Notes: generated by a model not told the origin, from the letters alone. Shown: positions 10,744 through 64,000, numbered from the stretch's first letter. The stretch is 64,000 bases of DNA from an uncultured Holophagales bacterium (GCA_963842525.1 CAWJGT010000003.1:1408001-1472000), one strand, 5' to 3'. Numbers and translations are program-made.

Positions 10744-12576
10744 GTGGCCAGAGTTGACTATGACGGGACCGAGATCGCCGTAGTCGGGATGGCTGGACGC
10801 TTCCCCGGCGCCCGCGACGTCGCCGAGCTGTGGCGCAACCTGCACGGCGGCGTAGACGCCGTGCGCCGGCTGAGCCCGACGGAGCTCGCGGCCCTGGGCG
10901 TACCGGCCTCTCTCATCGCCGATCCTGACTACGTGCCGGCGACCGCCCAGATGCCCGACGTCGAGAGCTTCGACGCTCCTTTCTTCGGCGTGAGCGACCA
11001 CGAGGCCGAGATCCTCGATCCTCAACAGCGTATCTTCCTCGAGCTCGCCTGGGAGGCGCTGGAGGACGCGGGGTACGATCCAGAGGTGGATCAGCGCGCC
11101 GTGGGCGTGTTCGCCGGCGCGAGCCTCAGCACCTACCTGCTCTTCAACCTGTCCGACCCGTCGCGGCGCGCCACGTTGGACCCCTGGGAGGCCCTGGCCG
11201 CCAACTCCGGCGACTCGCTCGCCAGCCGCATCTCCTACAAGCTCAACCTCAAGGGTCCGAGCTTCACGGTGCAGAGCGCCTGCTCGACTTCCCTGGTGGC
11301 CGTCCATCTCGCCTGCGCGAGCTTGCTCAACGAAGAGTGCGATGTGGCATTGGCCGGCGCGGTATCGATCAAGGTCAACCTTCTCGCCGGCTATCTCTCT
11401 CGCGGGAGCGCGGGATTGTCGCCCACGGGCCGCTGCCGCTCCTTCGACGCCGGTGCCGACGGCATGTTCTTCGGCCACGGCGGCGGGGTGGTCGTGCTGA
11501 AACGCCTGGCCGATGCGCTGGCCGACGGCGACACGGTGCGGGCGTTGATCCGCGGCTCGGCAGTGAACAACGACGGCAACGTCAAAGTCGGCTATGCCGC
11601 GCCCAGTGTCGAGGGTCAGGCCGCAGTGCTCACCGAAGCCTGGTCAGTCGCGGGCATCGACCCCGGGACGCTTTCCTACATGGAGGCGCACGGCACCGGG
11701 ACGCGCCTGGGCGACCAGATCGAGGTGCAGGCGCTGGAACGCGCCTTCCGCCCGCACACCGCGCGCAGCGGCTTCTGTGTCCTGGGGTCGGTGAAGACCA
11801 ACATTGGCCACCTCGACGCGGCCGCGGGTGTCGCCAGCTTGATCAAGACGGTGCTCTCTCTCGAGCATCGGCAGATCCCGCCGAGCCTGCACTTCGTCCA
11901 ACCCAGCCCGGAGATCGACTTCGCTGTCAGCCCGGTGCGGCCGGTCACCGAGCTCGCCGACTGGCCGGCAGAGGGGGACCGGATGCGCCGCGCCGGGGTG
12001 AGCTCCTTCGGCCTCGGTGGCACCAATGCTCATCTGGTCGTCGAGGAGGCACCGCTGGAGGCGCCGGCGCCGTCCCGTGCCTGGGACATCCTGCTCCTCT
12101 CGGCGCGCAGCGAAGAGGCACTGGAGCGTGCCACGGACGCGCTCGCCGCCCATCTCGCGAGCCACCCGACGCTCCCCCTCTCCGACGTCGCCTTCACACT
12201 GCAGACGGGTCGCCGCACCTTCGCCCATCGCCGAGCGCTCGTTTGCCGCCCGGAAGACGACGTGGCCGGCCTGCTGCTGCGGCGCGATCCCGAAAGGGTG
12301 CTCACGCGGCAGGTGGAGGCGACGGGGCGGCCGGCGTCCGTGGCAGGACCCATGGAAGGTATAACTGCGCTCGATCCCCACTCTCTCGCTCAGCTCTGGC
12401 TATCCGGAGGACGCCCGGACTGGCGGGCGTTCCACGCCGGCGAGCGCCGGCGCCGCGTGCCGCTGCCGACCTACCCGTTCGAGCGCCGGCGGTATTGGCT
12501 CGACGCCCCCGGCGTGCCGCGTCCACTGGGCGCTCTGGCCGACGCCACCCTGAAAGTCATGGAGAGCGCTCGATGA
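10744..12576 (+). CDS. Stand-alone type I ketosynthase with flanking subdomain; no AT and no ACP
   Basis: QSACSTS, EAHGTGT and KTNIGHL triad intact; LLLSARS...TLQTGR joined almost directly to LPTYPFERRRYW. Confidence 0.9.
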   Translation: MARVDYDGTEIAVVGMAGRFPGARDVAELWRNLHGGVDAVRRLSPTELAALGVPASLIADPDYVPATAQMPDVESFDAPFFGVSDHEAEILDPQQRIFLELAWEALEDAGYDPEVDQRAVGVFAGASLSTYLLFNLSDPSRRATLDPWEALAANSGDSLASRISYKLNLKGPSFTVQSACSTSLVAVHLACASLLNEECDVALAGAVSIKVNLLAGYLSRGSAGLSPTGRCRSFDAGADGMFFGHGGGVVVLKRLADALADGDTVRALIRGSAVNNDGNVKVGYAAPSVEGQAAVLTEAWSVAGIDPGTLSYMEAHGTGTRLGDQIEVQALERAFRPHTARSGFCVLGSVKTNIGHLDAAAGVASLIKTVLSLEHRQIPPSLHFVQPSPEIDFAVSPVRPVTELADWPAEGDRMRRAGVSSFGLGGTNAHLVVEEAPLEAPAPSRAWDILLLSARSEEALERATDALAAHLASHPTLPLSDVAFTLQTGRRTFAHRRALVCRPEDDVAGLLLRRDPERVLTRQVEATGRPASVAGPMEGITALDPHSLAQLWLSGGRPDWRAFHAGERRRRVPLPTYPFERRRYWLDAPGVPRPLGALADATLKVMESAR

Positions 12577-12592
12577 CCGCGCGAGGCCGCCC

Positions 12593-63100: not shown

Positions 63101-64000
63101 GCTGGTGCTCGGCACGGTCAGCGCGGCCCGGACCCGCGCCGCCTTTGCCCGCACGGCCGGCTACTTCGTCAATCCGCTCGTGCTGCGCGCCGACCTCGGC
63201 GGCGACCCCGGCTTCAGGGCGCTCCTGGCGCGCGCGCGACGCGACGCCCTGGGCGCTTTCGCCCATCAGGACTACCCCTTCCCGCTGCTGGTCGAGAAGC
63301 TCCAGCCGCAGCGCGATCCCGGCCGTTCCCCCCTCTTCCAGGTGATGTTCGTCGTGCAGAAGGCGCAGCTCGCGGACGGCCAGGACCTGACCGGCTTTGC
63401 GCTCGGCGAGCCCGGCTCGCGCGTCGAGCTGGGCGGCCTGGCGCTCGAGACGATCCCCCTGCCGCAGCGCATCGCGCAGTTCGATCTCACCCTCACGATC
63501 GGCGAGGTGGGCGGCCGGCTCATCGCCTCCTTCGATTCCAACGTTGACCTCTTCGACGAAGCGACCGTCGAGCGCCTGGCCGGTCATTTCGAGCGCCTGC
63601 TGACCGGCGCCCTCGCCGATCCCGACCGTCCCGTCTCCGAGCTGCCGCTGCTCGATCCCGCGGAGCGGCGCCAGTTGATCGAGGTCTGGAACGACACCAG
63701 CGTCCCGTACCGTGACCAGGCCACTCTCGCCGATCTCTTCGCACAGCAGGCCGCCGCCACGCCCACGGCGACCGCGGCGATCTTTGCCGGCCAGGAGATC
63801 ACCTATGCCGAGCTTGCCCGCCGCGCCGGCCAACTGGCGTCCACGCTACGGCAGCTTGGCGTCGGCCCCGAGAAGCTGGTCGGCCTCTGCGTCGAGCGCT
63901 CCTTCGACGTCCTGTCCGGCGCTCTCGGCGTGCTCGCGTCCGGCGGCGCCTATCTGCCGATCGACCCCGAGTACCCGCGCGAACGTATCGCGCATCTGGT
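60177..64000 (+). CDS. FAAL-ACP-C-A NRPS starter gene, truncated by the window edge and absent from the ORF track
   Basis: Frame from ATG 60177: FLQYTSGST, WLPPYHDMGLIG, GRNHYPQDIE, PKTSSGKIQR, ACP ALDSL, C HHIVTDFWS, start of an A domain; frame checked at these motifs. Confidence 0.93.
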   Translation, partial: MNAPPGTASTLVELLRQRARRRPESPGYCFLSDGDGAEAHLTYAELDRRARALGAALPRLGATGERALLLYPPGLDYIAAFFGCLYGGMVAVPAYPPRPNRPSPRVRSILEDAAPRVILTTAALRPKLEKLFPVPAGTEWLVTDDPLRPVADAEDWRDPGVEPSTLAFLQYTSGSTAAPKGVMLCHANLLHNLELIRTCFAQTERERTVLWLPPYHDMGLIGGILEPLYANYPVTLLSPLAFLQQPVRWLRAISRARATTSGGPNFAFDLCVQKVSAEQRQELDLSSWSLAFNGAEPVRPDTLERFAAAFAPCGFRREAFYPCYGLAESTLLLSSGRRLDGPRIRSFVAGELERHRAQATAPGTADARTLVGCGMPADPRPSDPVIAIVRPESAEPCPPGEVGEIWVSGPSVAQGYWRQPEETAGVFAARISGTTGGDPAGPFLRTGDLGFVDDGELFVTGRLKDLIILRGRNHYPQDIETTVEHSHSALRPGCGAAFAVELDAEERLAVAVEVHREHRQSDAAEVAEIIAAIRRAVADEHEVTPDVVVLLKPASIPKTSSGKIQRHACRAGYLAGSLAAVASWTAPHPGPLSHLPPTDRERGEEDGRFFSPLPGEGGTMGEGPGVRGHDDLVRWLAGEVARRSGVAEVDPRQPIASHALDSLATIELLHAIERHTGATVEMETLFSEVSLADLAASLRPRQEEPSAPSGVSAAGDFPLSRAQLSLWFLHALTPDSPAYNVPNAVRVRGTLDAAGLLGALQALVDRHPTLRTTFVAVDGEPLQRVAPHGAMEVAAYDVSSWSDGEIAAHLDSASVRPFDLEQGPLVRVGLYARSADDHVLLLTMHHIVTDFWSLGVLLDELAMLYAGRSASLPAAPPPYADFALRQDRELAGPAGEALWTWWSGHLAGELPVLDLPTDQPRPRVQGTSGRAHRRPLARPLTGEVHRLALEAGTTPFVTLLAAFEASLARHSGQSELVLGTVSAARTRAAFARTAGYFVNPLVLRADLGGDPGFRALLARARRDALGAFAHQDYPFPLLVEKLQPQRDPGRSPLFQVMFVVQKAQLADGQDLTGFALGEPGSRVELGGLALETIPLPQRIAQFDLTLTIGEVGGRLIASFDSNVDLFDEATVERLAGHFERLLTGALADPDRPVSELPLLDPAERRQLIEVWNDTSVPYRDQATLADLFAQQAAATPTATAAIFAGQEITYAELARRAGQLASTLRQLGVGPEKLVGLCVERSFDVLSGALGVLASGGAYLPIDPEYPRERIAHL
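61931..62061. repeat. Palindromic REP/MITE-like element lying in frame in the FAAL-ACP linker
   Basis: Arms GCCCCTCACCCCGGGCCCCTCTCCCATC and GATGGGAGAGGGGCCGGGGGTGAGGGGC, plus inner inverted arms. Confidence 0.85.

Follow-up and report, generated by a model that had tools for sequence, protein, structure and literature searches.

A putative lipo-thiazoline PKS-NRPS cluster with a sulfotransferase domain embedded behind a diaminopropionate-type module

The stretch of DNA analysed here, the window (64,000 nucleotides, G000:C3:1408001-1472000, G+C content about 70%), comes from the assembly of an uncultured Holophagales bacterium (9.95 Mb in 34 contigs, contig C3 accounting for 2.0 Mb). Positions 1-10723 are occupied by housekeeping genes (AspRS, dehydroquinate synthase, an HD-GYP protein, FtsY and RibD). 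From 10744 onward the content is biosynthetic, and consists of polyketide synthase (PKS) and nonribosomal peptide synthetase (NRPS) genes. The cluster overruns the window end at 64000 and reaches about 68780, for a total of about 58 kb. An initial annotation of this DNA had proposed a lipo-thiazoline PKS-NRPS cluster at 10744..64000, and Pfam and tblastn searches recover every element it named in the place where it had put it. The focus of this report is module 10 of this assembly line, the adenylation (A) domain of which exhibits a pocket of the type known for L-2,3-diaminopropionate (Dap), and the sulfotransferase (ST) domain embedded directly behind the peptidyl carrier protein (PCP) of that module.

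Each large protein has its closest relatives among proteins from metagenome-assembled genomes (MAGs) titled Thermoanaerobaculia or Acidobacteriota. One genome bearing part of the cluster, G087 (identical to G001; an "uncultured Acidobacteriota" MAG that contains locus L001), belongs to the same family as the window genome. The host is thus predicted to be an uncultured soil member of the Acidobacteriota, similar to Thermoanaerobaculia.

Gene content and domain order

On the minus strand, the Pfam and tblastn domain maps reveal a single line running from 59918 to 16933. It starts with a ketosynthase (KS), an acyltransferase (AT) and an acyl carrier protein (ACP), continues with a cyclisation (Cy) domain and an A domain with a methyltransferase (MT) and a PCP, and proceeds through ten modules of condensation (C), A and PCP domains, with an MT in module 9 and the ST, to a thioesterase (TE). 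Such a colinear series of KS/AT/ACP and C/A/PCP domains with a TE at its end is the arrangement of a hybrid type I PKS-NRPS. No epimerisation (E) domain had been seen in the initial annotation, and none is present in the tblastn domain map, where the gaps between a PCP and the next C domain are about 110 nt or less and too short to hold one. Dual C/E domains are marked by an extra HH[ILV]xxxxGD motif, which was found at the N-terminus of none of the 11 C domains; a nocardicin-like third histidine ahead of HHxxxDG is likewise absent from all 11.

The line comprises two genes. Gene B (52368..59918, minus strand) encodes KS-AT-ACP-Cy-A-MT-PCP, with two compensating frameshifts in the Cy domain. 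This Cy domain shows a DxxxxD type motif (FDFLVGDAWS) replacing HHxxxDG, beside a Cys-type A domain (module 1) with the code DLYNLSLIWK, presumably the canonical code for a cyclising cysteine. The remainder (16933..52396, minus strand) is a giant NRPS frame containing modules 2 to 11 and the TE, which would be a single gene if errors account for the frameshifts near 50255, 36742 and 29895.

The ten pocket positions of each A domain were placed via motif anchors on a MAFFT alignment of twelve A domains, using PheA numbering. The codes of modules 1, 2, 5 and 11 match what we take to be the canonical Cys, Gly, Ala and Gln codes, and this agreement validates the choice of columns. On the minus strand, module 2 (49132..52225, (D)ILQLGLVWK) would be Gly-like, module 3 (45955..49065, DAFFLGVTYK) Ile-like, module 4 (42586..45846, DVGEVSSIDK) of the 2,4-diaminobutyrate (Dab) or ornithine (Orn) type, module 5 (39361..42498, DLFNNALTYK) specific for Ala by the canonical code, module 6 (36110..39273, DAFFLGLTFK) Ile/Leu-like and module 11 (17755..20910, DPWQFGLIDK) Gln-like. 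No substrate is called for module 7 (32870..36028, DAHITTHV-K) or for module 9 (25222..29592, DIFHFGLILK), a C-A-MT-PCP module predicted to N-methylate its residue. Module 8 (29659..32803, DPRHFVYRAK) has a LYS2-like A domain and the frameshift near 29895, between A and PCP. Module 10 (21997..25152, DIWEITADDK) carries the Dap-type pocket discussed below. The TE (16969..17712, minus strand) is a member of PF00975 with the serine nucleophile motif GWSSG. Nearly all of the colinear peptide proposed in the initial annotation is in keeping with these codes: Cys, Gly, two Ile-like residues, Dab/Orn, Ala, the LYS2-like unit, an N-methylated residue, a diamino acid followed by an ST, and Gln. Its proline analogue at module 7 finds support at just four of the ten code positions.

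The best model for the A domain of module 8 is TIGR03443 (LYS2, L-aminoadipate-semialdehyde dehydrogenase), at 475 bits, the generic A-domain model giving 361; module 7 scores 136 bits with TIGR03443. The full-length cut-off of this model (1030) is beyond the reach of a single domain. A search with the LYS2-like A domain (29894-31405, minus strand) returned 7645 matches (E-value<=1e-40), the top 120 of which contain no named protein and are all from MAGs. LYS2-like A domains in ordinary C-A-PCP modules are common in soil MAGs of Thermoanaerobaculia, Longimicrobium, Herpetosiphonaceae and Pyrinomonadaceae. The C domain of module 4 (44497-45846, minus strand) reads HHIAFNG, with Asn for the Asp of HHxxxDG. 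The module 4 code coincides at nine of ten positions with the polymyxin Dab code printed in PMC12042044.

Gene A is encoded on the plus strand (60177..64000 and on to about 68780, with a probable ATG start at 60177) and has the domain order FAAL-ACP-C-A-PCP-KS(Ser)-AT-ACP, FAAL being a fatty acyl-AMP ligase. Its starter C domain reads HHIVTDF. The A domain (m0, code ASGSLGGVCK) exhibits Ala instead of Asp235 and gives no substrate call, and the KS (L066:7670-8797, window about 65670-66797) has Ser for the catalytic Cys (QSASSTS). Ketoreductase, dehydratase and enoylreductase domains are absent from this version of gene A. Homologs of gene A are numerous, many of them 72-84% identical. Among the 119 homologs listed, 34 contain the Ser-KS, and all 34 show the m0 code ASGSLGG(V/I)CK or a one-residue variant. 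Judged from these homologs, C-A-PCP-KS(Ser)-AT-ACP is a conserved initiation cassette. Both ATs, of genes A and B, carry the HAFH motif, which we take to indicate malonyl specificity. At the active serine the gene B AT (57405-58301, minus strand) reads GYSLG, compared with the usual GHSxG, and the gene A AT reads GHSIG. Compared with the acyl starter and malonyl proposed initially, the chain start is longer: it includes an extra C-A-PCP, a KS(Ser)-AT-ACP and, perhaps, a module split between a KS and an ACP protein.

The candidate components of this split module are found among the accessory genes, all of which have orthologs in G051, a complete genome of another genus (g7) with a related cluster at about 909-960 kb of G051:C1. 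The first gene (10744..12576, plus strand) encodes an AT-less KS of 610 aa matching Pfam KS_N, KS_C and linker, with the KS-AT linker and the post-AT-linker motif and no AT or ACP. Its catalytic Cys-His-His is intact, and its G051 ortholog (80% nucleotide identity) lies directly downstream of the FAAL gene there. A second gene (15035..15985, minus strand) encodes a truncated KS remnant fused to a carrier (ACP/PCP; 316 aa; Pfam KS fragment and PP-binding). The alignment of this remnant lacks the Cys and both His regions, so that it is catalytically dead; its G051 ortholog is 64% identical in amino acid sequence. The AT-less KS and the truncated-KS/ACP protein may together form a split extension module. 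Between them lies an N-terminal nucleophile (Ntn) hydrolase acylase of the penicillin amidase family (12593..14881, minus strand; PF01804, E-value = 1.4e-154), with no extra N-terminal leader before the amidase domain and with a 74% identical ortholog (aa) in the same position in G051. As an equivalog of PvdQ it was rejected, scoring 42 bits with NF051460 against a cut-off of 950. The remaining gene (15978..16874, minus strand; Methyltransf_11/25) encodes a stand-alone S-adenosylmethionine-dependent MT resembling O-methyltransferases. Its best NCBIfam matches are phthiotriol and fatty-acid O-methyltransferases (E-value = 4e-45, under the cut-offs), and its G051 ortholog is 82% identical (aa).

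Relatives and integrity of the locus

The G051 cluster shares window positions 47849-59902 at 79% nucleotide identity and gene A at 80-85%, gene B and modules 2 and 3 being common to both. The opposite end of the G051 cluster holds gene A, which immediately precedes the AT-less KS there; the G051 NRPS consists of eight modules and lacks an ST. Two genomes of genus g11 (loci in G087:C2 and G086:C3) share only the tail, window positions 16955-36868, at 77-83% nucleotide identity; this tail covers modules 6 to 11, the ST and the TE. Neither FAAL, PKS and Cy genes nor the accessory genes occur near these two tail orthologs. Modules 7 to 10 have the same codes in the window, in G001 and in G086. 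The core of four modules (a residue without assignment, the LYS2-like unit, the N-methylated residue, and the Dap-type module with its ST) is thus kept in three genomes. The code of the last module differs across the three tail orthologs (Gln-like, Ser-like and DPSDIGLITK), and a Dab/Orn-type module stands eight modules from the end in the window and in G001 alike.

These relationships indicate that in the window cluster a head of G051 type has been recombined with a tail of G087 type, and that gene A has moved relative to G051. The same pattern would be produced by a chimeric assembly that joined the head and the tail of two organisms through repeated C/A-domain sequence: the head (47849-59902 and the accessory genes) matches genus g7, the tail (16955-36868) matches genus g11, and the C domains of the line share up to 76% identity. 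The five genomes of the window's own genus contain no ortholog above about 50% identity, which fits recombination and would also be expected from a chimeric assembly. We nevertheless regard an assembly artefact as highly improbable. Identity to both relatives is just about 77-83%, neither being a near-identical donor, and the locus lies within a contig of 2.0 Mb. In the soil run X2, furthermore, near-identical contigs cover 43.1-46.5 kb and 50.9-56.5 kb at a depth of 8.4-9.2 throughout, and the runs X1 and X2 had themselves been found by words from the tail (29000-38900).

The membership of the FAAL gene in the pathway had been deduced initially from its adjacency. It can now be argued on a broader basis: G051 keeps the FAAL gene, the AT-less KS, the acylase, the truncated-KS/ACP gene, the MT and the head of the line together, and by this co-occurrence the FAAL gene can be assigned to the same pathway as the assembly line, along with the accessory genes. 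Should the divergent FAAL gene start another pathway instead, the thiazoline line would begin from acetyl or malonyl at gene B. The KS(Ser) of gene A could indeed act as a decarboxylating loader and not as a chain-passing KS, and the tail relatives G001 and G086 have no FAAL or PKS genes nearby. This arrangement is quite unlikely, since gene A and the AT-less KS stand in G051 beside the same accessory genes and gene B line, in a different order, and since gene B opens with a KS, which requires an upstream carrier-bound chain. On the 3' side of the FAAL gene there follow a DUF5916 protein, a stand-alone sulfotransferase-SCP2 protein and the NRPS genes of neighbouring clusters. In the second of these proteins (L066:12589-14502, window about 70589-72502) a sulfotransferase is fused to an SCP2 sterol-carrier domain; neither it nor the adjoining DUF5916 protein is kept next to the G051 cluster.

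Frame changes occur in the line near 56272, 55337, 50255, 36742 and 29895, every flanking segment being open and homologous. A further change at 52370/52396 resembles a true gene boundary, with a stop followed by a TTG or GTG start. The directions of the five changes fit single-base errors, namely a surplus base at 56272, 50255 and 29895 and a lost one at 55337 and 36742. At 50255 the surplus is an A within the Asp235 codon of module 2, and the deficit at 36742 lies in a run of six G. Contigs from X1 and X2 (two independent soil runs, about 95% identical) differ from the window by +1 at 55337/55338 and -1 at 56272, which exactly restores the frame. The G001 ortholog is in frame at 29895 and 36742, the window being one base over at the first site and one base short at the second. 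This G001/G087 ortholog reads through 11,003 aa without interruption, and the G051 ortholog of gene B (74% aa identity) is an open frame of 2549 aa.

We therefore consider the five breaks very likely to be assembly indels. Two observations weigh against this: the X2 contig has a one-base insertion of its own at 54948, where the window frame is intact, and the X1/X2 comparison, the covered stretch of which excludes 29895, lists no indel at 50255 or 36742. The alternative is a recently inactivated array of pseudogenes, in which the five frameshifts would be real mutations and no product would be made. Decay of this kind would agree with five frame changes in 43 kb, of which three hit catalytic domains and one an Asp235 codon, and also with the failure of the related soil contigs to resolve 50255 and 36742. 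We find it improbable, as each segment remains open in the homologous frame with no further decay, independent short-read contigs from near relatives show two of the sites reversed, G001 is in frame at another two, and two or three of the five sites fall in homopolymer runs. Taken together, it is likely that a single hybrid PKS-NRPS cluster, genuine and of orphan status, extends from 10744 to about 68780, its five frameshifts being assembly indels and its composition a mosaic of two cluster types. The initial annotation did not recognise this combination of domains from a known pathway. In accordance with this, literature searches on biosynthetic gene clusters of Thermoanaerobaculia, on acidobacterial NRPSs with ST domains and on sulfated lipopeptides from Acidobacteriota yielded no characterised counterpart, and searches with the code strings returned either PMC12042044 alone or no match.

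The pocket of module 10 and the embedded sulfotransferase

PMC12042044 distinguishes three modes by which A domains bind diamino acids. The third of these, "mode 3", combines Glu at position 4 with Asp at both positions 8 and 9; its representative is SulM A3, the sulfazecin domain for L-Dap, and it is described there as absent from other known clusters. Database homologues of SulM A3 have Ile at position 2 throughout (PMC12042044). The module 10 code DIWEITADDK, with Glu 4, Asp 8, Asp 9 and Ile 2, fits mode 3 exactly and shares seven of ten positions with SulM A3. At position 6 it has the Thr of the N2411T variant of SulM A3, a variant that raised the activity with Dap and methyl-Dap (PMC12042044). 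A reading of this code as Dab was dropped in favour of the mode-3 Dap signature. Where the initial annotation left a choice between Dab and Dap for the sulfonated residue, the sequence of diamino acid and ST is retained, and the code favours Dap over Dab.

The genome encodes a supply of this amino acid. An adjacent SbnA/SbnB pair at G000:C34:368548-370612 (L086:4546-6613, minus strand) scores above both curated NCBIfam cut-offs (388 for a cut-off of 350, and 333 for 327), indicating that the organism can make L-2,3-diaminopropionate. Among four tested genomes holding the orthologous module, SbnA is above the cut-off in three (G086, G087 and G084) and below it in G078, which is 84% complete. 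It is also below the cut-off in G051, whose cluster has no ST, and above it in none of 14 control genomes.

An ST domain of the type using 3'-phosphoadenosine 5'-phosphosulfate (PAPS) is embedded at 21175..21825 (minus strand; Sulfotransfer_3, PF13469, E-value = 3.6e-28), in the order PCP10-ST-C11. Its closest solved structures are the CurM ST (4gbm, E-value = 1e-52) and the ST of olefin synthase (OLS; 4gox, E-value = 1.5e-51). Homologs amount to 596 (E-value<=0.001) among 1710 scored candidates. With a match to the A-PCP-ST query in 91 of the 92 genomes, carrier-linked STs are near-universal in this acidobacterial family, and we know of no product for any of them. Their contexts were counted in the best 120 homologous proteins, which contain 178 ST domains, 174 of them with enough upstream sequence. 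The motif PPELELL is present in 161 of the 178, where CurM and OLS have PPELHLL. The A domain preceding the ST is of the Thr type in 56 cases, Ser in 55, Tyr in 28, module 10 type in 5, other in 21 and unreadable in 9. Conversely, an ST follows 55/72 Ser, 56/74 Thr, 28/30 Tyr and 5/6 module 10-type A domains, and 20/229 others (415 assessable). This enrichment indicates that the ST goes with residues having a side-chain nucleophile. In one relative (P0120) an ST at residue 1083 stands behind an A domain with the code DIFHFGLIIK, a near-copy of the module 9 code. The N-methylated residue of module 9, too, may bear a side-chain nucleophile.

The ST is under purifying selection. Compared among the window, G001 and G086, its dN/dS ratio is 0.15-0.22, the lowest of five neighbouring partitions (A10, 0.27-0.52; PCP and linker, 0.43-0.49; C11, 0.33-0.40), which indicates that the ST is functional in its present context. 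In a FastTree phylogeny of the STs, the window ST clusters with its two orthologs, sister to Thr-coupled STs. The module 10-type label requires three changes on this tree, the pairing of a mode-3 A domain with an ST having arisen at least three separate times. A search for convergent substrate-site changes in the Dap-coupled STs gave none; KTTTYALDL in place of KTPSYALDP is found in the window clade only.

These findings lead us to propose, tentatively and as one possibility, that the conserved core builds a peptide with an N-sulfonated diaminopropionate (a sulfamate), the ST being an assembly-line-embedded version of the SulN step. N-sulfonation of Dap is inferred. Several points weigh against it. 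SulM A3 (9n1u) ranks only 33rd of the 40 solved matches listed for A10, so that it can be dismissed as the nearest solved A domain, and the likeness resides in the pocket rather than in overall descent. Dap supply genes are missing at the cluster: no sbnAB is found within window coordinates 1-90000 nor at the G001, G086 and G051 loci, the pair being on another contig, C34. The proportion of five in six module 10-type A domains followed by an ST is biased, as the proteins were selected for their ST and orthologs make up three of the five cases. Within the window genome, only one of six mode-3 A domains is followed by an ST. The code positions themselves depend on motif anchors and PheA numbering, and several substrate names depend on agreement with canonical codes. 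The five other mode-3-like A domains of this genome, none of them followed by an ST, are located at C3:420792, C3:1530026, C14:93522, C34:324577 and C34:734581.

It is also conceivable that the ST does not N-sulfonate Dap. A10 might load a hydroxy amino acid that is then O-sulfated, or the sulfate might serve as a leaving group, as in CurM, and be absent from the product. Most ST-bearing modules in the best 120 homologs (139 of 174) follow Ser-, Thr- or Tyr-type A domains, the window ST is sister to Thr-coupled STs, and the nearest solved enzymes, the CurM and OLS STs, employ sulfate as leaving group. Pocket mutants of SulA3 are reported to show modest activity with Ser and Thr (PMC12042044). 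We hold this alternative to be rather unlikely. The A10 pocket retains all three acidic residues of the Dap signature, the genome encodes Dap synthesis by SbnA/SbnB, and mode-3 A domains have been paired with STs repeatedly, as counted above. For PCP-bound Dap and a sulfotransferase, the sole biochemical precedent is N-sulfonation by SulN (PMC11298585).

Proposed route and comparison with known systems

The following route would account for the domains. The FAAL would load a fatty acid on the ACP, and the C domain would join it to a unit that is not an alpha-amino acid, selected by the A domain with Ala for Asp235. Two or three non-reducing malonyl extensions might follow, by the KS(Ser)-AT-ACP of gene A, possibly the split AT-less KS and truncated-KS/ACP pair, and the KS-AT-ACP of gene B. 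The Cy-A-MT-PCP module would then add cysteine as a (methyl)thiazoline, probably C-methylated; no reductase partner for this thiazoline was seen. The ten subsequent modules are predicted to add Gly, an Ile-like residue, Dab/Orn, Ala, an Ile/Leu-like residue, a residue without assignment, a residue resembling 2-aminoadipate or Glu and possibly iso-linked, an N-methylated residue, L-Dap and a Gln-like residue. Behind the Dap carrier, the ST would sulfonate the tethered chain with PAPS, most likely at the side-chain amine of Dap. Release by the serine TE would be hydrolytic, or would close a ring onto the side chain of Dab/Orn. Finally, the O-methyltransferase-like MT would O-methylate the product, and the acylase may strip off the fatty acyl group.

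The initial annotation had noted a loose echo of sulfazecin logic in this part of the line, and the mode 3 signature of module 10 makes the echo stronger than that (PMC12042044). The system of Paraburkholderia acidicola (SulI/SulM/SulN/SulG/SulH) resembles the window cluster in the pocket (DIWEITADDK compared with D,V,W,E,M,N,A,D,D for SulM A3; PMC12042044), in a PAPS sulfotransferase acting at the carrier-bound stage (PMC11298585), in the local order of an acidic residue, a small residue and Dap, and in a Dap supply of the SbnA/SbnB type, here present in the genome and outside the cluster. There are clear differences. The window ST is a cis domain of CurM type, whereas SulN is separate. Dap is predicted to be penultimate in the window (PCP10-ST-C11-A11-PCP11-TE) and not in a terminal module feeding the TE; all five mode-3 modules with an ST that were examined are internal. 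In contrast to the Gln-Cys-Asn cysteine motif of the sulfazecin TE (PMC11298585), the window TE has a serine in GWSSG, and no SulTE-like cysteine TE occurs in the window or in the 13 TE tails recognised among the best 120 homologs. An APS-kinase domain and sbnAB are lacking inside the window cluster, and its predicted product is a long lipo-thiazoline peptide. SulI-like proteins (APS kinase-A-PCP) were considered as kin of the LYS2-like A domain of module 8, and none is found among the top 120 of its 7645 matches. The cluster thus seems partly sulfazecin-like, in the Dap mode-3 pocket and in the putative on-carrier sulfonation, yet outside the sulfazecin family. Among the domains that the Figure 7 legend of PMC11298585 gives for candidate monobactam clusters is a sulfotransferase domain.

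The mode-3 pocket beside an ST domain, with the Dap supply encoded in the same genome, provides a testable A-PCP-ST tri-domain for N-sulfonation in cis, and the conserved tetrapeptide core is available for synthesis or expression. If the proposal is correct, this would be the first known N-sulfonating domain inside an NRPS, and would suggest that soil Acidobacteriota have a family of sulfamate lipopeptides bearing a recognition element like that of monobactams, in which ring closure might occur by a route other than the SulM thioesterase. To our knowledge, monobactams are the only beta-lactams that resist metallo-beta-lactamases. If N-sulfonation does not occur, the cluster would be one more orphan among many in genomes rich in biosynthetic gene clusters. 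Its specific features, namely the pairing of a Dap-type module with an ST, the conserved four-module core and the Ser-KS cassette, can each be tested.

Other systems share parts of this architecture. The STs of CurM (curacin A) and of olefin synthases act on a beta-hydroxyl, within ACP-ST-TE at the end of a PKS, and lead to decarboxylative release. They are the nearest solved relatives of the window ST and have the PAPS-loop and PPEL motifs in common with it; in contrast to this off-loading position, the window ST is placed within an NRPS as PCP-ST-C. The NRPS-embedded STs of Thermoanaerobaculia and other Acidobacteriota show the same A-PCP-ST-C layout, but belong mostly to Ser, Thr or Tyr modules, while the window protein and four others among the best 120 are of the Dap type. 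The combination of a FAAL with an acylase of the penicillin amidase family in one cluster is reminiscent of pyoverdine, where fatty-acyl priming is followed by deacylation by the Ntn acylase PvdQ. A Cy domain accompanied by an embedded MT is also a feature of the Cy-A-MT-PCP modules of yersiniabactin and pyochelin. An ST domain inside an NRPS is likewise present in OciA of the cyanopeptolin pathway, where it reportedly acts on a glycerate starter.

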